NCBI RefSeq assembly: GCF_037902255.1
Contig: NZ_CP147990.1
Coordinates: 674,751 to 738,750 of the forward strand
Direction of reading: 5' to 3'
Source of the DNA: Candidatus Electrothrix sp. GW3-4
GTDB lineage: Bacteria > Desulfobacterota > Desulfobulbia > Desulfobulbales > Desulfobulbaceae
DNA: 64,000 nt
Shown here: positions 36,947-49,900 of the stretch, in pieces
Layout of the letters: every line of letters begins with the position of its first letter
Numbering within the stretch: the first letter of the stretch is position 1
Made by a program: the position numbers and the translations under genes
The notes under the pieces: generated by a model
Told to the model about the DNA's origin: nothing
The model's input: the letters and a program-made list of their open reading frames with translations, nothing else
Databases searched by the model: none

Positions 36947-39805
36947 ATGTTCCCCCTAAAAAACAACGAGCGCAATATGGTGCCCAATAAAACCCCGGAA
37001 CAGGTCGCCCGCGACAACATCGACGACCTGCTCAAGGCCGCAGGCTGGCAGGTCCAGGATAAAAACAGGATCAATCTGCATGAGGGCAAAGGCCAGGCTG
37101 TCAGGGAATATCAAACCGCAGCTGGTCCAGCTGACTATGTCCTGTTCGTGAACAAAAAGCCTGTCGCGGTTATTGAGGCCAAGCGGGCCAGCAAGGCTGA
37201 GAATATCACCACGGTAGAAGAACAGAGCGCAGGCTACGCCAGTGGCCAACTCAAATGGGTCGGCAAAAACGAGCCCTTGCCCTTCCTCTACCAGAGCACT
37301 GGCATCATTACCCGTTTCACTGATAATCGAGATCCGAAACCGCGTTCCCGCGAGGTCTTCACCTTTCATCGTCCTGAAACCCTCCAGGAATGGGCTGAGC
37401 AGGGAGAGGGCCTCAGAGCCCGTCTGACCCAGATCCCCTTGCTCAATCCCTTCCAACTTCCACCCAAGGAGCTGGATCTGCGCGACTGTCAGGAATCGGC
37501 GATCAGCAACCTTGAGGAATCCTTCAAACTGGATAAACCCAGGGCTCTGATCCAGATGGCCACCGGCGCAGGCAAGACCTATACCGCTATCACGGCCATG
37601 TACCGGATCCTCAAGCATGCCAAAGGCAAGCGCATCCTCTTTCTGGTGGATACCAAGAATCTGGGCGAACAGGCCGAGCAGGAAATGCTCACCTTCACCC
37701 CGCAGGATGACAACCGCAAGTTCACCGAGCTTTACGCAGTACAGCGCCTGAAAAGTGGCAATGTGCCCAAGGATGCCCAGGTCTGTATCAGCACTATTCA
37801 GCGTATGTACTCCATCCTCAGAGGTGAAGAGCTGGATGAGGCCCTGGAGGAACGCAATCCGGCCGAACAGCAGACCAAGCCCAAAGAGCCCATGCCGGTT
37901 GCCTATAATCCCAAGGTGCCGATCGAGTTTTTCGACTTCATCTTTATCGATGAATGCCACCGCTCCATCTACAACCTCTGGCAGCAGGTGCTGGATTATT
38001 TTGACGCCTACCTGATCGGCTTGACCGCCACCCCGGATAATCGTACCTACGGCTTTTTCAAGCAAAATGTGGTCAGTGAGTACACCCATGAAAAGGCCGT
38101 GGCTGATGGGGTTAACGTGGGTAATGAGGTCTATTTCATCGACACCAGGATCTCACAACAGGGCGCACAGCTGCGAGCCAGGCAGCAGGTAGAGCTGCGG
38201 GAAAAGAGGACCCGCAAGGGGCGTTGGCAGGAACAGGACGAAGACGAGGCCTATTCTGCCAAGCAGTTGGACCGGGATATTGTCAATCCAAGCCAGATCA
38301 GAACGGTGATCCGGGCCTTTAAAAACAGCCTGCCGGAGATCTTTCCCGGTCGTGATGAGGTTCCCAAGACCCTGATCTTTGCCAAGACCGACAGCCATGC
38401 CGATGATATTATTCAGACCCTGCGGGATGAATTTGGGGAAGGCAATGCCTTTTGCAAGAAGGTCACCTATAAGGCGGCTCAGGATAGGAAAGACAAAGCG
38501 GGCAAGATCATCCAGCAAGGCGAAGCAGCGAAATCCATCCTTTCCCAGTTCCGCAACGACTATAATCCCCGCATCGCGGTGACCGTGGACATGATCGCCA
38601 CCGGCACTGATGTCAAGCCGCTGGAGTGTCTGCTCTTTATGCGGGATGTTAAGAGCAAAAACTACTTTGAGCAGATGAAAGGCCGGGGAACCCGGACCCT
38701 GGAGCATGACGACCTGCGTAAGGTCACGCCCTCGGCCAGGAGTGCCAAGACCCACTATGTTATTGTCGATGCCATTGGTGTCACCAAGTCCCTCAAGACT
38801 GCCAGTCAGCCGCTCATCACCAAGCCCTCGGTTCCTCTCAAGGATCTGGCAATGGGCGTGATGATGGGCACCAGCGATACGGACACGGTCAGTTCTCTGG
38901 CTGGTCGTCTGGCACGTTTAAATAAGCAACTGGATGCAGAGGATCAGGCCAGAATCGAAAAGGCCGCCGGAGGTGTGGAGCTGCCCCGGATTATCAACGA
39001 CCTGTTTGATGCCATTGACGCGGATCGGGTCGAAGCCAAGGCCCTGGATCTGGCCAGGCAGCCTGCGGGAACAGATCCTGGAGATGAGAAGCGGCAAGAG
39101 GCCCAGGCAGAGCTCGTCAGTGCGGCAGCCGATGTCTTTACCGGCGATTTGATAGAGCTGATTGACTCCATCAGGAGAGAAAAGGAGCAGAAAATCGACC
39201 ACGATAACCTGGATGAAGTGCTCCGGGCTGAGTGGGGCAAGGATTCGGCAGAGAACGCCCAGCACTTGGTTGAGGATTTTGCCGCGTATATTGAGGAGCA
39301 GAAAGATACCCTGGATGCTCTGGAGATCTTTTATGATCAGCCCCAGCGTCGAAGAAAGATCACTTACGACATGATCCAGGAGGTGCTGGATACGCTCAAG
39401 GCGGACAGGCCCGCCCTTGCGCCCCTGCGCATCTGGAATGCCTACAGCCAGCTGGATGATTATCAGGGCAAGCAACCCATAAATGAGTTGACCGCACTGG
39501 TTGCCTTAATCCGCCGAGTCTGTCATATTGATTCGTCTTTATCACCCTATGATGGAACGGTGCGCAGGAATTTTCAGGATTGGGTGATGAAGCACCATGC
39601 TGGTGCTGGTGAGAAGTTCAATGAGGAGCAGATGCAGTGGTTGCAGATGATCCGGGATCATATTATCAGCTCGTTTCATTTTGAGCGGGATGATCTGGAG
39701 ATGGCACCGTTTGATAGTCAGGGAGGGTTGGGGAAGATGTATCAGTTGTTTGGGGATGGGATGGATGGGTTGATTGATGAGATGAATGAGGGGCTTGCCG
39801 CTTGA
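36947..39805 (+). CDS. hsdR: Type I restriction enzyme R subunit (HsdR).
   Basis: N-terminal nuclease domain (VIEAKRAS). Helicase motifs QMATGAGKTYTAI, FIDECHRS, LTATP. Confidence 0.85.
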   Translation: MFPLKNNERNMVPNKTPEQVARDNIDDLLKAAGWQVQDKNRINLHEGKGQAVREYQTAAGPADYVLFVNKKPVAVIEAKRASKAENITTVEEQSAGYASGQLKWVGKNEPLPFLYQSTGIITRFTDNRDPKPRSREVFTFHRPETLQEWAEQGEGLRARLTQIPLLNPFQLPPKELDLRDCQESAISNLEESFKLDKPRALIQMATGAGKTYTAITAMYRILKHAKGKRILFLVDTKNLGEQAEQEMLTFTPQDDNRKFTELYAVQRLKSGNVPKDAQVCISTIQRMYSILRGEELDEALEERNPAEQQTKPKEPMPVAYNPKVPIEFFDFIFIDECHRSIYNLWQQVLDYFDAYLIGLTATPDNRTYGFFKQNVVSEYTHEKAVADGVNVGNEVYFIDTRISQQGAQLRARQQVELREKRTRKGRWQEQDEDEAYSAKQLDRDIVNPSQIRTVIRAFKNSLPEIFPGRDEVPKTLIFAKTDSHADDIIQTLRDEFGEGNAFCKKVTYKAAQDRKDKAGKIIQQGEAAKSILSQFRNDYNPRIAVTVDMIATGTDVKPLECLLFMRDVKSKNYFEQMKGRGTRTLEHDDLRKVTPSARSAKTHYVIVDAIGVTKSLKTASQPLITKPSVPLKDLAMGVMMGTSDTDTVSSLAGRLARLNKQLDAEDQARIEKAAGGVELPRIINDLFDAIDADRVEAKALDLARQPAGTDPGDEKRQEAQAELVSAAADVFTGDLIELIDSIRREKEQKIDHDNLDEVLRAEWGKDSAENAQHLVEDFAAYIEEQKDTLDALEIFYDQPQRRRKITYDMIQEVLDTLKADRPALAPLRIWNAYSQLDDYQGKQPINELTALVALIRRVCHIDSSLSPYDGTVRRNFQDWVMKHHAGAGEKFNEEQMQWLQMIRDHIISSFHFERDDLEMAPFDSQGGLGKMYQLFGDGMDGLIDEMNEGLAA

Positions 39806-39807
39806 TA

Positions 39808-40203
39808 ATGGAAGAAGGTAGAGGGAAGAAGGAAGAATTTGTCGATCTTCGCCAGCGAACCAAAGCGTTTGCCCTTCGAGTTATTCGTTTATACGTCAGC
39901 TTGCCCAAAAGGACAGAAGCGCAAGTCATTGGCAAACAGTTATTGCGTTCAGGGACTTCCGTTGGTGCGAATTATCGGGAAGCTTATCGCGCAAGAAGTA
40001 AGGCGGAATATATTTCTACTGTTGGAATTTCGTTGAGAGAAGTTGAAGAGACCGGGTATTGGTTTGAGCTGCTGGTTGAGGCAGGTATTGTTCCTGAAAA
40101 TAAATTACGTTCTTTGCAGCAGGAGTGCGGGGAGCTAACGGCAATTTTTGTTTCTTCGATTAAAAAGGCGAAAAGAAGTAGCAGCCGGGGTGGAGCTGAA
40201 TGA
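39808..40203 (+). CDS. Four-helix-bundle protein (23S rRNA intervening-sequence protein family), commonly embedded in type I RM loci.
   Basis: Family pattern …ALRVIRLYVSLPKRTEAQVIGKQLLRSGTSVGANYREA…. Confidence 0.7.
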   Translation: MEEGRGKKEEFVDLRQRTKAFALRVIRLYVSLPKRTEAQVIGKQLLRSGTSVGANYREAYRARSKAEYISTVGISLREVEETGYWFELLVEAGIVPENKLRSLQQECGELTAIFVSSIKKAKRSSSRGGAE

Positions 40204-40216
40204 AGAAGGTAGAAGG

Positions 40217-41770
40217 ATGAAGGATAAGAATATTACCTTGGGCGATATTTCCGATACTGATATTAATCGCAGCGGGCCTTCTGGTGCCGAGTTTGTTTAT
40301 GTCGATATTAGCAGTGTAGATCGATCTTCTAAAACTATTATCAACCCAAAAAAATTAAAAACTTCAAAAGCTCCAAGTCGAGCAAAACAGCACTTGAAAA
40401 GTGGCGATGTTCTAGTTTCTATGACTCGTCCGAATCTCAATGCTGTCGCTCTGGTTCCCCCAACGTTAACCGGTGCAATTGGCTCAACAGGCTTTCATGT
40501 TTTACGCTCAAAATGGGTAGAACCTAAATTCATATTTTATCTTGTTCAGTCCCGTGAATTCATTGATGACATGAGTCTGAGAGTTCAGGGTGCATTGTAT
40601 CCAGCAGTACGACCAGCCGACATTTCTTCCTTCTTCCTTCCTCCTTTTTCCTTGAGCTATCAGCGAAGCGTAGTAGCTCGCCTCGAAGAACTCTTCTCCG
40701 AGCTGGATAAAGGCATCGAAAGCCTGAAGACCGCGCGGGAGCAACTCAAGGTCTATCGTCAGGCATTGCTTAAACATGCCTTTGAAGGCAAACTCACCGA
40801 ACAATGGCGGAAAGACAACGCGGATAAGCTGAAAACAGCGGACCAGCTTTTGGAACGCATCAAGCAAGAGCGCGAAGCTCGCTATCAGCAACAACTGGAA
40901 GCATGGAAAGTAGCGGTTAAGCTGTGGGAGGTTGGTGGGAAGGAGGGGAAGAAGCCGAGGAAACCAGCCGGTTTCAAGGAGCTTCCACCAATTGACGAAA
41001 CTGAGCTTGATGTTTTGCCAGAGTTACCTCAAACTTGGATATATCGTCGTTTGGCAGAAATTGCGCAAATTGGCTCTGGCATGTCAGTCAGCAGGAACAG
41101 AAAACTCAATAAGCCTGTGGAGGTTCCATATTTACGAGTAGCGAATGTTCAGCGGGGTAGCCTTGCACTTGATGAAGTGAAGACCATGCTGATAGAAGAA
41201 GGACAACTTGAAGCTCTCTTACTGGAAAAGTGGGATGTACTTTTTAATGAGGGCGGAGATAGAGACAAATTAGGTAGAGGCTGGATCTGGGAATCACAAA
41301 TTGAGAGATGTATCACTCAGAATCATGTGTTCAGAGCCACTACCTATCTTGGTGGTGAGGTTCATTCAAAATTTGTTTCTCATTGGGGAAACACTTATGG
41401 TCAGAACTATTTTGATAAAGGTGGTAAGCAAACCACTAATCTGGCGTCTATCAACAAGACTGTCTTGAGCATGTTTCCGATTCCAGTTCCTTCAGAAGAG
41501 GAACAGGAGCAAATCATTAAAGAGCTTGAAGAAAAGATGTCTACACTGGATTCATTCGAGATGGATATAGATACATCTCTCACAAAATCCGAAGCCCTTC
41601 GCCAATCCATCCTCAAAAAAGCCTTCTCCGGCCAACTGGTCCCCCAAGACCCCAACGACGAACCCGCCTCCGTCCTGCTAGAACGCATCGCCAAAGAAAA
41701 GGAAGCAGCCGCAGTCAAGGCCAAAAAAGCCAAGACCGTGAAGAAGAGAACGAAAAAAGGATGTACATGA
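40217..41770 (+). CDS. hsdS: Type I RM specificity subunit (HsdS) with two target-recognition domains and central/terminal coiled-coil repeats.
   Basis: Start at ATG 40217 (MKDKNITLGDISD…). Conserved LPPxxEQxxI spacer motifs. Repeated EALRQSILKKAF-type helix. Confidence 0.8.
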   Translation: MKDKNITLGDISDTDINRSGPSGAEFVYVDISSVDRSSKTIINPKKLKTSKAPSRAKQHLKSGDVLVSMTRPNLNAVALVPPTLTGAIGSTGFHVLRSKWVEPKFIFYLVQSREFIDDMSLRVQGALYPAVRPADISSFFLPPFSLSYQRSVVARLEELFSELDKGIESLKTAREQLKVYRQALLKHAFEGKLTEQWRKDNADKLKTADQLLERIKQEREARYQQQLEAWKVAVKLWEVGGKEGKKPRKPAGFKELPPIDETELDVLPELPQTWIYRRLAEIAQIGSGMSVSRNRKLNKPVEVPYLRVANVQRGSLALDEVKTMLIEEGQLEALLLEKWDVLFNEGGDRDKLGRGWIWESQIERCITQNHVFRATTYLGGEVHSKFVSHWGNTYGQNYFDKGGKQTTNLASINKTVLSMFPIPVPSEEEQEQIIKELEEKMSTLDSFEMDIDTSLTKSEALRQSILKKAFSGQLVPQDPNDEPASVLLERIAKEKEAAAVKAKKAKTVKKRTKKGCT

Positions 41771-42421
41771 TGGCTGTGCCTGGCGTTGAAACACCCTTTC
41801 GGCAGTCCCTCCGGGACGGGTTGAGTTTTCGGCAGGGAATGCATCAAAAAGACGTACAGCGTCCCGGAGGGACAGCCCGGTAATAGCCCCGTGATTTATC
41901 GCGGGGTGTTGTGTGTCCGACATCCTGTTGTATAAATAAATCCCCAGGGTTAAAACCCTGGGCTATGTTCGTTCGTCCCTTCGGGATGCTGTTTCCCGGA
42001 AATCCCCGCCCTGGAGGGGCGATCTATAATAGCCCACCGTTTTAACGGTGGGTGGCCCTGAATCAGTTATTCGAAATTTTCGAATAACTGCTGCCGATTG
42101 AGTTGAATGGAAATCAGTTATCCGAAATTTTCGGATAACTGCCGCCGATGGAAAAAATCACACCAGAATCATTCATGATCGTCTGTATACGTCCGATTTT
42201 TACTGGTGCCCAAGCTCTGCTTGGGTATCTCTGAATACAGAAGCTCCGGCTTCGGGAAATGAAGCGGAGCTTCAGAAAATGCAGTTCCCAAGCCGGAGCT
42301 TGGGAACCAGAGAAATAACTGCCGCTGATGGAAAAAACACACCAGAATCATTCAGAATCGTCTGGAGACGTCCGGTTTTGACCTTCTGATACAATAAACA
42401 AGCAGAGAGCGAAAAGAAAAA
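41771..42421. repeat. 650-bp non-coding, highly structured insert between hsdS and hsdM. It contains the following.
- 14-bp long-range inverted repeat at 41805-41818 / 41860-41873.
- Perfect palindromes at 42033-42052, 42064-42091 (28 bp CAGTTATTCGAAAATTTTCGAATAACTG) and 42116-42142 (27 bp).
- About 70-bp direct repeats at ~42135-42200 and ~42315-42380.
- Several GC hairpins at 42200-42310.
   Basis: Read directly from the sequence. No ORF over 40 aa. Confidence 0.7.
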
Positions 42422-43921
42422 ATGAACGCCGAAACCCTTATTTCCAAAGTCTGGAGTTTCTGTACCACCCTCAGGGATGATGGCGTCGGCTATGGCGACT
42501 ACCTGGAACAACTGACCTATCTCATCTTCCTGAAAATGGCGGATGAATACCGCAGGCCCCCCTATAAGCGCGATGTCGGTATCCCGGAGGAGTTCACCTG
42601 GAACAGCCTGCGCAGCAAAAAGGGCGCAGAGCTGGAAGGGCATTATATTACCCTGCTCCGGGAGCTGGGCATGAAGAAGGGCATGCTCGGCCAGATCTTC
42701 ACCAAATCCCAGAACAAGATTCAGGACCCGGCCAAGCTCTCCCGCCTGGTGGAGATGGTCAATGACACCGATTGGGTCATGCTGGATGCCGATACCAAGG
42801 GCACCATCTACGAAGGGCTTCTGGAAAAGAACGCCGAAGACACCAAGTCCGGCGCTGGTCAGTATTTCACCCCGCGCTCCCTGATCAAGGCCATGGTCGC
42901 CTGTATGCGCCCGGAACCCATGCAGACCATTGCCGACCCTGCCTGCGGTACCGGCGGCTTTTTCCTTTCTGCCTATGATCACCTGATCGGCAATCATAAG
43001 CTCGATAAAAAGCAGAAGGCCTTTCTCAAGTTTGCAACCTTTAGCGGCAATGAGATCGTCTCCAATACCCGCCGCATGTGCCTGATGAACATGTTTCTCC
43101 ACAACATCGGCGAAATTGATGGCGAGAGTGCGGTGAGCGCCAACGACGCCCTGATTGCTCCTCCCGCCTACACCGTGGATATGGTGCTGGCCAATCCGCC
43201 CTTTGGTAAAAAGAGCAGCATGACCTTTACCAACCAGGAAGGGGAACAGGAGAAAGACGACCTGACCTATAACCGCCAGGATTTCTGGGCCACCACCTCC
43301 AACAAGCAGGTCAACTTTGTCCAGCACATCCGCTCCATGCTCAAATCCACAGGTCGGGCCGCTGTGGTGGTCCCTGATAACGTCCTCTTTGAAGGCGGGG
43401 CTGGGGAAACCGTGCGCAAGAAGCTCATGGAGACCACAGAACTCCACACCATTTTGCGGCTGCCCACTGGTATCTTTTACGCCAACGGGGTCAAGGCCAA
43501 TGTCCTCTTTTTCGATAACCGCCCGGCCCAGAAAGAGCCCTGGACCAAGGAGGTGTGGTTCTACGATTACCGCACTAATATTCACCACACCCTGAAGAAA
43601 AAGCCCCTGCGCCTGGAGCATCTTCAGGACTTTATTGCCTGCTATAGCCCGGAAAACCGTCATAAGCGAGAAGCAACCTGGGATGCTGCAACCAACCCCG
43701 AGGGGCGGTGGCGGAAGTACGTCTATAATGATATCATCGCCAGAGACAAAATCAGCCTGGATATCTTCTGGCTCAAGGATAAATCCCTGGCCGACCTGGA
43801 CAACCTGCCTGAGCCGGAAGATCTGGCCGCAGAGATTATCGAAAACATTGAAGCAGGGTTGCAGAGTTTCCGGGAAGTTGCTGTTGGTTTAAGCGTAATT
43901 AGCACATCCACAGAGGGGTAG
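42422..43921 (+). CDS. hsdM: Type I RM N6-adenine DNA methyltransferase (HsdM).
   Basis: N-terminal HsdM_N (DYLEQLTYLIFLKMADE), NPPFG catalytic motif, AdoMet motif I DPACGTGGF. Confidence 0.9.
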   Translation: MNAETLISKVWSFCTTLRDDGVGYGDYLEQLTYLIFLKMADEYRRPPYKRDVGIPEEFTWNSLRSKKGAELEGHYITLLRELGMKKGMLGQIFTKSQNKIQDPAKLSRLVEMVNDTDWVMLDADTKGTIYEGLLEKNAEDTKSGAGQYFTPRSLIKAMVACMRPEPMQTIADPACGTGGFFLSAYDHLIGNHKLDKKQKAFLKFATFSGNEIVSNTRRMCLMNMFLHNIGEIDGESAVSANDALIAPPAYTVDMVLANPPFGKKSSMTFTNQEGEQEKDDLTYNRQDFWATTSNKQVNFVQHIRSMLKSTGRAAVVVPDNVLFEGGAGETVRKKLMETTELHTILRLPTGIFYANGVKANVLFFDNRPAQKEPWTKEVWFYDYRTNIHHTLKKKPLRLEHLQDFIACYSPENRHKREATWDAATNPEGRWRKYVYNDIIARDKISLDIFWLKDKSLADLDNLPEPEDLAAEIIENIEAGLQSFREVAVGLSVISTSTEG

Positions 43922-43924
43922 CAC

Positions 43925-43951
43925 TGTAGGGGCGAATCCCTGTGTTCGTCC
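43925..43951. repeat. REP-like palindromic unit TGTAGGGGCGAATCCCTGTGTTCGTCC immediately after hsdM.
   Basis: Same family as the intragenic hrpA repeats at 5589-5660. Confidence 0.55.
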
Positions 43952-44062
43952 TTGTATATCAGACGGTTTGAGCAATGCGTTGTCCGCTTTCGTTTTGTTC
44001 AAGCAGATCTATCCGACTGTTTCGTTATTTCATATTATTTTTTTACCCAAGGGAGAAAAACA

Positions 44063-44389
44063 ATGGCATCTATTGAGCACAATGGTATCACCTATGAGGT
44101 TGATTATGACGGTTTCCTGTTGAACGGTTCTGAGGAATGGGACGATAACTGGGTTGATTACGTAAAGGGTATTGAAGGTATCAACGACATAACCGATGAG
44201 CATCAGAAAGTTATTGTCGCTCTGCAGGAATACTACAAGAAGAATGGTATTCCCCCCATGCACGATATTATTTGTTCCAAGGTTACAGGGTTCCCGTTGA
44301 AGAAAATCTACGAGCTGTTCCCGTCAGGGCCTATTAAAGGAGCCCGTAAAATGGCTGGGTTACCCCAAATTAATCCCTCTACTATCTGA
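44063..44389 (+). CDS. DsrC/TusE-family protein lacking both conserved C-terminal cysteines.
   Basis: MASIEHNGITYEVDYDGFLLNGSEEWDDNW…YELFPSGPIKGARKMAGLPQINPSTI follows the DsrC fold pattern. The tail is …AGLPQINPSTI instead of …CxxAGLPKPxGCV. Confidence 0.65.
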   Translation: MASIEHNGITYEVDYDGFLLNGSEEWDDNWVDYVKGIEGINDITDEHQKVIVALQEYYKKNGIPPMHDIICSKVTGFPLKKIYELFPSGPIKGARKMAGLPQINPSTI

Positions 44390-44419
44390 CTTGAATTAAC
44401 TGAAGCTCAAAAAGTTCCG

Positions 44420-45801
<1,382 letters not shown>

Positions 45802-45858
45802 TCAATTTCATAATACAAGGTCTGATTTCGCTTTACTCAATCAAGACCTACACAGTTC

Positions 45859-46497
45859 ATGTGGACCGCCATGTTCCACCAAGATAACCTTACCCGCAGC
45901 TTAGCCAAAATAGGAGCACAACCCTCTTTTTCCATTTTCGATAAACTCAAACAAGTCTATACGGAGCCGGGACGCTACTATCATACGGATAAGCATATTA
46001 CCGACTGCCTGACTCATGTACAACCCCTCCGCCATCAAGCAACGCATCCAGCGGAGATTGCAATCGCGCTCTGGTTTCACGACGCAATCTACGACACCCG
46101 CAGGGAAGACAACGAAGAGCAAAGTGCGGAATGGGCAGTCAACTTTCTTGGAGCATCTGAGGTCAAACAGGCAGTCATAGACCGGATAGCCCGTCTGATC
46201 ATGGTGACCAAAATCCATGATCCCTTTGATGCCGATACCGCTCTCATGACAGATATTGACCTCAGCATCTTAGGTGCGCAGCCCCAGCTGTTTGAGCAAT
46301 ATGATGCTGATATTCGCCGTGAATACGCTTGGGTTCCAGACGAACAATTTCGACAAGGGCGTGTACAGGTTCTGAAGAGCTTTCTGGAGCGAGCAAGAAT
46401 CTACACAACAGCCTATTTTTCAGAGCAATACGAAGAGCAGGCCCGAGTGAATCTCAAGCGCAAAATTAAGCAGCTTTCCTCTGGTTTGTTGCTGTAA
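45859..46497 (+). CDS. Predicted HD-superfamily metal-dependent phosphohydrolase.
   Basis: RYYHTDKHI … WFHDAIYD (H…HD…D pattern). 212 aa. Confidence 0.5.
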   Translation: MWTAMFHQDNLTRSLAKIGAQPSFSIFDKLKQVYTEPGRYYHTDKHITDCLTHVQPLRHQATHPAEIAIALWFHDAIYDTRREDNEEQSAEWAVNFLGASEVKQAVIDRIARLIMVTKIHDPFDADTALMTDIDLSILGAQPQLFEQYDADIRREYAWVPDEQFRQGRVQVLKSFLERARIYTTAYFSEQYEEQARVNLKRKIKQLSSGLLL

Positions 46498-46538
46498 TAC
46501 CGAGAGATGAAAGATGGATAGAGACAAAGGAGGGCAGT

Positions 46539-47180
46539 ATGCGTAGCTTTCGAGAATGGACCTTGGCGGAACTGGACAGAGCGTTTAAACTAACTGTTCT
46601 TGATACCAGCCCGGTGCTGGAAAATTGGCTCAATGGCCAAGCGGAAATATCCTCCTATGAACAGCAAGCCTTAGGCTCTTTTCAAACCCTGTTAAAGACC
46701 CATGTCTATGACTGGAACGAGACCGAGCTCGCCTATAATTTCATTGGCCCGCTCATGACCCTGGTTCGTTTCAGCACAAAAGAATTTAATTTTTTTGCGG
46801 AACGTCCCTTATCTGGTGTTGTAGATGAGGTCGAAATGACAGGCAGGCCTGACGGCATTATTGCCTCTGGTTTTCGGGAGCCGCAACAGCCCTATTTTTG
46901 CCTCCAGGAATATAAGAAAGAAAAAGACCCAGAGGGCGATCCCGCAGCCCAGGTACTTGCAGCCATGCTGGTGGCCCAGGAGCTGAATCAGCATAAATTA
47001 CCAGTGTATGGTTGTTATGTGAAAGGGGAGGTCTGGCATTTTCTCACCCTGGAAGAGCGATCCTATGCAATCAGTCAGGGATATCTGGCCTCCCGGCAGG
47101 CGGATCTCAATGAAATTTTCACCATCCTGAAGCGTCTCAAAGTAATCATTACCGCTTTTACAAGCAGAACAGACACATGA
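46539..47180 (+). CDS. Hypothetical 213-aa protein translationally coupled to oleC.
   Basis: ATGA overlap with the oleC start. No recognisable motif. Confidence 0.5.
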   Translation: MRSFREWTLAELDRAFKLTVLDTSPVLENWLNGQAEISSYEQQALGSFQTLLKTHVYDWNETELAYNFIGPLMTLVRFSTKEFNFFAERPLSGVVDEVEMTGRPDGIIASGFREPQQPYFCLQEYKKEKDPEGDPAAQVLAAMLVAQELNQHKLPVYGCYVKGEVWHFLTLEERSYAISQGYLASRQADLNEIFTILKRLKVIITAFTSRTDT

Positions 47181-48910: not shown

Positions 48911-49879
48911 ATGAAGTGTCTGGAGTTTGTAAATGGTGACCAAATGCCTATGTTGGGGTTGGGCACCTGGAAATCCGCACCCGGTGATGTCTACAAGGCA
49001 GTCAAGGAGGCCTTGAAGCTGGGCTATCGTCATATTGATTGTGCACCGATCTACGGGAATGAAGTCGAGGTCGGTCGAGCCCTGGCAGAGTCGATTGCTG
49101 AGGGGGTGGTGGCCCGGGAAGAGCTCTGGCTCACCTCCAAGCTCTGGAATGATTGCCATGCACCAGAAGACGTACAGCCTGCCTTGGAAAAGACTCTGGC
49201 TGATTTGCAGATAGCGTATCTGGATCTCTATCTCATTCATTGGCCCGTGGCCTTGAAGAAGGGCTCGCTTTTTCCCAATACCGGTGCTGATATGCTCTCC
49301 CTGGAGGAAATGCCGCTCGCCCAGACCTGGAGCGGTATGGAGGCGGTGCTGGCAAAGAAGCTCTGCCGTCATATTGGGGTGAGTAACTTCAGCCTGCCCA
49401 AGCTCCAGGGCCTGCTTGAGGTTGCTCAAGTGCGACCGGAGATGAACCAAGTGGAGTTGCACCCCTATTTGCAGCAGCCGGAACTGCTCGATTTTTGCCG
49501 GAAGAATGCGGTGCATATGACGGCCTATTCTCCTCTGGGCTCCCCTGATAGGCCCCTGGCCTTAAAGGCAGAGAATGAACCTCTGCTGATGGCCGATCCT
49601 GTGATCGGTCAGATTGCCCAACAGCATGGCTGTACCCCTGCCCAGGTCTTGATCAGCTGGGCTGTGCAGCGTGAGACGGTTGTTATTCCCAAGTCAATCA
49701 ACCCCGCACGAATGGAGGCGAACCTTGCTGCTGCCTCGCTGGCACTCAGAGTTGATGATATGGAGAAGATCGCGGCCCTTGATCGGCATCGTCGCTATGT
49801 CAGCGGGGATTTTTGGGTCCTTGCAGATGGTCCCTACACTGTAGGGAACCTCTGGGATGAAAAAAAGGAAGAAGGTTGA
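48911..49879 (+). CDS. Aldo/keto reductase (NADPH-dependent oxidoreductase).
   Basis: LGLGTWKS…GYRHIDCAPIYGNE AKR catalytic-tetrad context. Start at ATG 48911, with GGAGG upstream. Confidence 0.8.
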   Translation: MKCLEFVNGDQMPMLGLGTWKSAPGDVYKAVKEALKLGYRHIDCAPIYGNEVEVGRALAESIAEGVVAREELWLTSKLWNDCHAPEDVQPALEKTLADLQIAYLDLYLIHWPVALKKGSLFPNTGADMLSLEEMPLAQTWSGMEAVLAKKLCRHIGVSNFSLPKLQGLLEVAQVRPEMNQVELHPYLQQPELLDFCRKNAVHMTAYSPLGSPDRPLALKAENEPLLMADPVIGQIAQQHGCTPAQVLISWAVQRETVVIPKSINPARMEANLAAASLALRVDDMEKIAALDRHRRYVSGDFWVLADGPYTVGNLWDEKKEEG

Positions 49880-49900
49880 ACAATATGAAGAAGGAAAAGT

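Follow-up and report, generated by a model that had tools for sequence, protein, structure and literature searches.

We analyzed a 64,000-nucleotide stretch of the genome of Candidatus Electrothrix sp. GW3-4, a cable bacterium of the Desulfobulbaceae (contig NZ_CP147990.1, positions 674,751 to 738,750), here referred to as the window. Within it lies a type I restriction-modification (RM) operon in which hsdS and hsdM are separated by a folded, non-coding gap of 651 bp (41771-42421). A preliminary description of the locus had offered three explanations for this spacer: a structured regulatory RNA that gates hsdM expression, a set of recombination sites, or the decayed remains of an inserted element. 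We conclude that the gap is most probably debris gathered at an insertion hot spot, made up of two families of repetitive extragenic palindromic (REP) elements, present as inverted doublets (REPINs), and a decayed rhuM gene, and not a dedicated regulatory RNA or recombination switch.

Architecture of the type I RM locus

The gene order given in the preliminary description, namely hsdR, a four-helix-bundle gene, hsdS, and hsdM, is confirmed by Pfam. The first gene, hsdR (36947-39805, plus strand), encodes a type I restriction subunit of 952 amino acids (aa) (ResIII, 7.5e-39; EcoEI_R_C, 2.3e-37; HSDR_N, 3e-11) and is 91% identical in DNA sequence to its counterpart in Electrothrix scaldis (L002, 5116-7992; L numbers designate the sequences used for comparison). 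Inserted between hsdR and hsdS is the four-helix-bundle gene (39802-40203, plus strand), whose product belongs to the 23S rRNA-intervening-sequence protein family (PF05635, 23S_rRNA_IVP; Pfam, 2.6e-21); neither the syntenic E. scaldis operon nor L004 has this gene, and there the stop codon of hsdR directly adjoins the start of hsdS. The specificity subunit is encoded by hsdS (40148-41770, plus strand; Methylase_S, 1.4e-08), the true start codon of which may lie downstream of 40148. Alignment with E. scaldis hsdS is limited to conserved segments, as expected when target-recognition domains differ. The intact hsdM (42422-43921, plus strand) encodes 499 aa (N6_Mtase, 5.2e-69; HsdM_N, 4.5e-12). 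Its ATG is abutted by a translation-initiation region, ACAAGCAGAGAGCGAAAAGAAAAA (42398-42421, plus strand), that is 97% identical to E. scaldis L002 9970-10000 and to L005, and the last 30 nt 5' of the start codon are conserved in relatives. The signature domains of hsdR, hsdS, and hsdM are thus found in a single locus with every frame intact, as befits a type I RM system.

The spacer, put at 650 bp in the preliminary description, is as densely structured as stated there. Its minimum free energy is -267 kcal/mol, compared with -194 ± 5.6 kcal/mol for shuffled sequences (z = -12.9), and its minus strand folds with a z of -10.0. GC hairpins beyond the named repeats had also been reported, and these lie at 41886-41907, 41943-41962, 42206-42228, 42241-42273, and 42284-42307. 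An Rfam covariance search, which the preliminary description had proposed, returned two matches to RF01687 (Acido-Lenti-1) at or above the gathering score, both inside the spacer; for the hairpins of 42203-42311 and the AT-rich palindromes it returned only sub-threshold miRNA noise.

Two families of hairpin repeats in the spacer

Right after the hsdS stop codon, positions 41781-42052 hold three and a half copies of a 46-nt unit, here called REP-1, which consists of an 8-bp hairpin, GCTAT, a linker, and a 5-bp hairpin. The copies are arranged in two convergent doublets (D/C and A/B). Copies A (41943-41989, plus strand) and B (42006-42052, minus strand) form a REPIN-like doublet with a 16-nt linker. 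They are the only matches in the whole window to reach the RF01687 gathering score of 37 bits (42.0 bits over 41943-41988 and 46.3 bits over 42007-42052, respectively), and our own covariance model of the unit, R1, gives them 59.9 and 59.8 bits. Copy C (41859-41906, minus strand) scores 60.5 bits with R1 and 23.2 bits, below the gathering score, with RF01687. Copy D (41781-41818, plus strand), which converges on C, is degenerate, having lost the 3' arm of hairpin 1 but retained that hairpin's 5' arm and loop together with an intact hairpin 2 (GTCCCTCCGGGAC); R1 aligns 41797-41817 to model positions 25-45 with 13.2 bits. Read against soil seed sequences, a copy D unit is present at the corresponding place in L002, L005, and L006. 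In the 64-kb window, R1 found no REP-1 copy outside the spacer.

These units account for two features that had been described separately. The long-range inverted repeat, reported as 14 bp, is real and measures 18 nt (41801-41818/41860-41877, 94% complementary); it is two copies of one self-complementary hairpin (GTCCCTCCGGGAC), hairpin 2 of copies D and C, each in a separate repeat unit. The 20-bp palindrome at 42033-42052, with its 8-bp stem, is hairpin 1 of copy B.

The three GC hairpins between the long direct repeats of the spacer belong to a second family, REP-2. They make up a 109-bp REPIN (42203-42311, with no assigned strand) of two inverted two-hairpin units, CTGGTKCCCAAGC-loop-GCTTGGG ... 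GAAGC-loop-GCTTC, and the REP-2 pattern matches both ends of the element in opposite orientation. The same pattern occurs in at least 120 metagenome stretches. A metagenomic locus (L207, 452-567) is 92% identical over 118 nt to window positions 42197-42314, with unrelated flanks, and the element is absent from E. scaldis. The copy in another context and the absence from E. scaldis together indicate that REP-2 is a discrete mobile unit that was inserted into a rhuM relic in the GW3-4 lineage. The preliminary description had suggested comparing the locus with that of other strains, and this comparison identifies 42203-42311 as an insertion.

REP and REPIN elements are known from Escherichia coli and Pseudomonas together with REP-associated tyrosine transposases (RAYTs) (PMC3116915, PMC3337134, PMC5581495), and a Y1 transposase gene bracketed by inverted REP copies is the defining architecture of such systems (PMC3116915, PMC5581495). 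Both families in the spacer share with these systems short, GC-rich, intergenic hairpin units, often in inverted doublets, Y1 (HUH) genes bracketed by inverted copies, and presence or absence that varies between close relatives. REP-2 is, in addition, associated with proteins that pass the NCBIfam RAYT model (NF047646): 191 bits for a protein encoded beside REP-2 in L144 and 116 bits for one in L176, where the gene is flanked by inverted copies. A further RAYT protein (L248, 97 bits) is encoded about 1.8 kb from the nearest REP-2 copy. REP-2 is therefore dispersed, forms inverted doublets, and has a canonical RAYT gene adjacent to inverted copies. Unlike the known systems, REP-1 is a two-hairpin, 46-nt unit whose Y1 proteins are IS200-like and not canonical RAYTs, and the density of REP copies in the window is low. 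The preliminary description had allowed that the palindromes might prove to be generic REPs present in hundreds of intergenic copies. That holds in kind, as both families to which the GC hairpins belong are of REP type and widely dispersed. As to number, the rest of the 64-kb window, scanned also for REP-2, contains no further copy.

A decayed rhuM gene

The idea that the spacer is the decayed remains of an inserted element fits half of it, 42060-42397, which consists of pieces of a rhuM pseudogene and the REP-2 REPIN inserted among them. In relatives such as L007, rhuM is intact at this place in the operon, and the pieces were read against the L007 product (RhuM_L007). Relic a (42060-42111, plus strand) contains a palindrome at 42064-42090 and translates over 42060-42101 as ESVIRNFRITAAD followed by a stop, corresponding to RhuM_L007 residues ~76-89 (79% identity by tblastn). 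It repeats the beginning of relic b in tandem over 51 bp, and its unit is found in L005 at 92% identity over 51 nt. Relic b (42112-42202, plus strand) contains the palindrome at 42115-42141 and translates over 42102-42203 as VEWKSVIRNFRITAADGKNH plus TRIIHDRLYTSDFY; codons ~74-93 (VEWKSVIRNFRITAADGKNH) are joined by an internal deletion to C-terminal codons ~324-335 (RIIHDRLYTSDF). A run of 30/30 nt in relic b, made up of this palindrome and its flanks, is identical to L007 1413-1442, which lies within the intact rhuM and encodes SVIRNFRIT. Across the longer alignment with L007 rhuM, identity is 88% in blastn (52 nt, E 1e-14) and 75% in tblastn (20 aa, E 1e-6). Relic c (42312-42397, plus strand) reads EITAADGKN over 42312-42338 and, after a frameshift, the C terminus RIIQNRLETSGFDLLIQ and a stop over 42344-42397, with 50% identity by tblastn to RhuM residues 324-349. 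It begins at the palindrome center and so keeps only the right half of the palindrome.

By similarity at the same operon position, these pieces belong to the RhuM family (PF13310), and the reading frame is not intact: there are stops after 13 and 34 codons, a frameshift, and a deletion of about 230 codons. One objection to a pseudogene would be that the similarity is confined to the palindrome, and the C-terminal matches contradict it. L005 and L006 likewise carry rhuM relics.

The remaining repeats of the preliminary description resolve into this gene. Its two larger palindromes are present, displaced by 1-2 nt from the coordinates first given, at 42064-42090 and 42115-42141. Each has 13-nt arms and a single central base, and the two differ by a compensating pair of substitutions. 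On the alignments above, these palindromes, 51 bp apart, are a tandem duplication of rhuM codons. The direct repeats of ~70 bp were correctly identified (42135-42203/42315-42382, about 86-96% identical); relic c is the second copy, and the pair represents two copies of an internally deleted rhuM remnant.

Variation of the junction among relatives

We compared the junction with that of relatives, defined as operons with an HsdM 89-95% identical to that of the window. In L004 the R-S-M order is kept and only 37 bp separate hsdS and hsdM. In L007 and L008 (HsdM, 90% identical) an intact rhuM (PF13310) and a small GIY-YIG gene lie between hsdS and hsdM. The arrangement in which rhuM and GIY-YIG genes stand between type I core genes has been published (PMC9881135), and the spacer resembles it in operon position, as in L007 and L008, and in DNA and protein similarity. 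It differs in that GW3-4 has three fragments of about 50-90 bp with stops, an internal deletion, and duplications, and a search of the spacer for a GIY-YIG remnant gave no credible match. The syntenic locus of E. scaldis (L002), which has the same Fic and exonuclease neighbors, has an hsdS-hsdM gap of 381 bp that matches window positions 41771-42052 at 94% identity and contains no counterpart of 42060-42394. A rhuM relic of the TIKKYLIV type (AACTATTAAGAAATACTTAATAGTT) is carried by the E. scaldis spacer and by the tail of L005. The junctions of L005 and L006 are other mixtures of the same modules.

A cis-regulatory leader or riboswitch would be expected to be conserved 5' of hsdM orthologues. 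The spacer is absent from L004 and L007 and only partly shared with E. scaldis, L005, and L006. Because the junction differs in this way among close relatives, the spacer is not a conserved leader of hsdM, and the junction gathers insertions. From these comparisons, the hsdS-hsdM junction of the R-S-M operon appears to be a recurrent insertion hot spot, and the ancestor shared with E. scaldis appears to have already had the REP-1 doublets.

The L006 spacer (1480-1660) also contains different tandem hairpin repeats, with AAAAGGGTACCCTTTT-type units and four copies of TTGATTCACAAAACCTACGCC, and a duplicated fragment of the hsdS 3' end.

REP-1 as a dispersed mobile repeat

Acido-Lenti-1 was described by Weinberg et al. 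in 2010 as a likely non-coding RNA, with no function given and many copies per genome; dozens of copies from Lentisphaera araneosa, some of them in short-period tandem arrays, appear in its seed alignment (PMC2864571). The units in the spacer share its 8-bp hairpin, GCUA, 12-nt linker, and 5-bp hairpin, and two of them exceed its threshold. Unlike the Rfam entry, which describes a small RNA (sRNA) gene limited to Acidobacteria and Lentisphaerae, they occur in a cable bacterium, and a pattern specific to their loop type is found in many phyla. Scanning reference genomes with this pattern gave at least 120 stretches from Acidobacteriota, Planctomycetota, Verrucomicrobiota, Bacteroidota, and four other Electrothrix species; GW3-4 is not among the matches listed. 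When the listed stretches are pooled with the loci of the relatives, two viral contigs, and the window, 149 of the 152 pattern matches form the hairpin. In the columns that the pattern leaves unconstrained, hairpin 1 has compensatory changes; hairpin 2 was preselected for pairing by the pattern, so that statistics on it are circular.

The context of REP-1 argues for a mobile DNA repeat over an RNA gene. Among the matches listed, the flanking open reading frames (ORFs) fall into 146 and 147 different Pfam families with no recurrent partner, and orientation relative to neighboring genes is mixed (18, 26, 18, and 13 over the four arrangements). Several Electrothrix species carry REP-1 doublets at loci without RM genes. 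Inverted pairs also occur in L019, L070, L121, and L002 (15008-15112), and 13 of the 20 two-copy loci elsewhere are close inverted pairs. The convergent doublet at L002 15008-15112 lies between two genes, and the syntenic site in GW3-4 (49879-49884) has only ~4-20 bp and no copy, which implies gain or loss of the doublet.

Transposase genes accompany the repeat. In the ~0.8 Mb examined, all five Y1 transposase ORFs lie within ~125 bp of a REP-1 copy (L047, 621-1289; L037, 1665-2319; L095, 2868-3495; L040, 6299-7192; L118, 3-518). The four that are complete (L047, L037, L095, and L040) are all bracketed by inverted REP-1 copies, and that of L118 is cut by a contig end. Against the IS200/IS605 model NF033573 (cutoff, 55), four of the proteins score 56-81 bits and that of L040 scores 38 bits. 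The bracketed genes stem from Verrucomicrobiota, Acidobacteriota, and Planctomycetota, and none is from Electrothrix. REP-1 thus has the hallmarks of a REP, with intergenic units at many unrelated loci, inverted doublets, and a Y1 gene bracketed by inverted copies. Judged from these sequences, it appears to work like a REP but with an IS200-like enzyme. In the literature searched, we found no paper that links Acido-Lenti-1 to REPs, and the family may need to be reannotated as a REP-type DNA repeat.

Two further features of the repeat were observed. Outside Electrothrix (L012-L131), most paired copies diverge such that their first hairpins face each other (13/20 two-copy loci), and most Electrothrix doublets are convergent. 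Between each REP-1 copy and its Y1 gene there is an extra inner hairpin that resembles hairpin 2.

A specific tie of REP-1 to type I RM or to the four-helix-bundle gene was considered and rejected. When every ORF of 120 motif-bearing loci was searched by phmmer with the HsdR, four-helix-bundle, HsdS, HsdM, and DsrC proteins of the window, one HsdR-like match was the only result, a single-sequence search being weak for the divergent four-helix-bundle family.

A palindrome conserved within rhuM coding sequence

Type I RM operons and prophages commonly carry rhuM genes as passengers. From viral contigs (L262-L309) we gathered rhuM genes without reference to the palindrome, which yielded 35 distinct sequences; 31 of these have a perfect palindrome with 10-14-bp arms at codons ~77-87. 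In L007 the palindrome lies at 1414-1440. Its arms keep pairing through compensatory substitutions, including ones that change amino acids, as seen in genes encoding VIRKFRIT (left arm, CAGTTATCCGAAA; right arm, TTTCGGATAACTG), TIRNFRIV (AACTATCCGGAA and TTCCGGATAGTT), TIRKFLIV (AACTATTAGAAA and TTTCTAATAGTT), TIKKYLIV (AACTATTAAG and CTTAATAGTT), and VCAIFAHT (CAGTATGTGCAA and TTGCACATACTG). When synonymous codons were resampled, the observed stem length was reached in 0-7 of 1000 trials, which indicates that the palindrome is conserved more strictly than the peptide. We rejected the idea that it is a LexA box, given that the LexA site published for a rhuM gene (TCGAACAAATGTTCGA) differs in sequence and is located 96 bp upstream of the gene. 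No paper on a palindrome in rhuM coding sequence was found in the literature searched.

This conservation raises the question of whether the palindrome itself has a function, as DNA or RNA, that it continues to exert on the operon now that the frame is lost (it could be an operator, a site of processing or cleavage, or an entry site for rhuM cassettes), and whether relics persist 5' of hsdM in several Electrothrix lineages for that reason. Relics that retain the palindrome do precede hsdM in GW3-4 (with two and a half copies), E. scaldis, and L005, and the compensating difference between the two full copies in GW3-4 also speaks for such a role. However, the palindrome is missing from the L006 relic, and L004 lacks any relic. 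Being fragile, palindromes may also simply attract the end points of rearrangements, as with relic c, which starts at the palindrome center, and intrastrand repair can homogenize their arms without selection. We regard continued action of the palindrome in this operon as unlikely.

Regulatory RNA and recombination

The proposal that the spacer is a structured cis-regulatory RNA, or one or more Acido-Lenti-1 sRNAs, gating hsdM and thereby setting the ratio of HsdR and HsdS to HsdM, draws on its very strong fold, on the two copies above the threshold of a family that Rfam types as "Gene; sRNA," on the covariation of the structure, and on the conservation of 41771-42052 in E. scaldis. It could also appeal to the apparent lack of an internal promoter, given which hsdM must be read through the hairpins. 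Nevertheless, we consider it quite improbable. The element is missing from the closely orthologous operons L004 and L007; the REP-1 motif lies between unrelated genes in either orientation and brackets Y1 transposase genes as inverted pairs; and within 300 bp of this one spacer, copies stand on both strands. Covariation is expected equally of DNA hairpins recognized by a transposase, and the many copies per genome and tandem arrays described for the RNA family came with no assigned function.

That the palindromes and repeats serve as recombination sites for phase variation or shuffling is very improbable: inverted and direct repeats are indeed dense in the spacer, RhuM-family genes are enriched beside predicted programmed inversions of hsdS (PMC9881135), and an IS110-family DEDD transposase gene, overlooked when the preliminary description stated that there was no recombinase, lies at 44638-45609 (minus strand), but nothing ties this gene to the spacer, no invertase is present, the spacer contains no hsdS fragments or alternative half-genes (as had been stated) and, compared with hsdS and with the rest of the window, has no 12-mers in common beyond chance, rhuM codons account for the palindromes, the repeats belong to dispersed families, and a scan of the window found neither REP-1 nor REP-2 flanking the IS110 gene.

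A model for the origin of the spacer

Accumulation of debris at an insertion hot spot suggests the following history. A rhuM-type accessory gene would formerly have stood at the hsdS-hsdM junction, as it still does in a relative. Its decay would have involved removal of the 5' part, tandem duplication of 51 bp, an internal deletion from ~codon 93 to ~codon 324, and a further duplication, and the AT-rich palindromes would be inherited from the palindrome in the intact coding sequence. The REP-2 doublet would have landed inside the rhuM relic in the GW3-4 lineage only. Y1 (HUH) transposases supplied in trans may have mobilized both REP elements in the form of single-stranded hairpins.

As for the expression of hsdM, a consensus scan, which is not conclusive for this organism, detected no sigma-70-like promoter in the gap, and the plus strand contains one terminator-like site, which is weak. 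Transcription from the operon promoter probably continues into hsdM, whose translation would start at the conserved initiation region. REP and bacterial interspersed mosaic elements inside E. coli operons, such as that between malE and malF, stabilize upstream mRNA. The spacer resembles those operons in having hairpin repeats between cistrons, and by this analogy its hairpins might at most modulate mRNA processing or stability. Given the type I stoichiometry R2M2S1, low HsdM would cut both methylation and restriction, so the arrangement should not be self-toxic.

Several points weigh against this account. Without a REP copy elsewhere in the 64-kb window, the abundance of both families here may be low, and no Electrothrix genome is among the sources of the Y1 and RAYT genes seen beside REP copies. 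The Y1 proteins associated with REP-1 score only 21-24 bits with NF047646, compared with a cutoff of 80, and so fall outside the RAYT family. At 70 bp, the direct repeats around REP-2 greatly exceed what a target-site duplication would span. The order of events has been reconstructed from sequence comparison, and the survival in a pseudogene of two perfect palindromes with compensating differences could mean continuing selection.

Neighboring genes

Downstream of the operon, a DsrC/TusE-like gene (43952-44389) begins 30 bp past the hsdM stop, as though in one transcription unit. The IS110-family gene (DEDD_Tnp_IS110 and Transposase_20 domains) follows on the minus strand ~700 bp downstream of hsdM, and no such gene is present at the syntenic place in E. 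scaldis. Its non-coding flanks (44390-44637 and 45610-45858) could contain a bridge-type RNA. Window positions 45883-47155 match L002 1-1047, the two genes 5' of the Fic gene in E. scaldis; in GW3-4 these sit downstream of hsdM and the IS110 gene, a local rearrangement beside the insertion sequence. The E. scaldis HsdM (L002, 10001-11368) has 455 aa, compared with 499 aa in the window, and ~110 bp of the window hsdM (43390-43499) have no counterpart there, such that the E. scaldis methylase may be impaired.

Implications

For the RM locus itself, the result is mostly deflationary, and it cautions against reading dense structure as regulation. Beyond the locus, the rhuM palindrome gives experiments on the role of rhuM cassettes a concrete starting point. 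A curated Rfam "sRNA" family that behaves as a REP-type repeat tied to IS200-like Y1 transposases across several phyla would change how matches to RF01687 are annotated.

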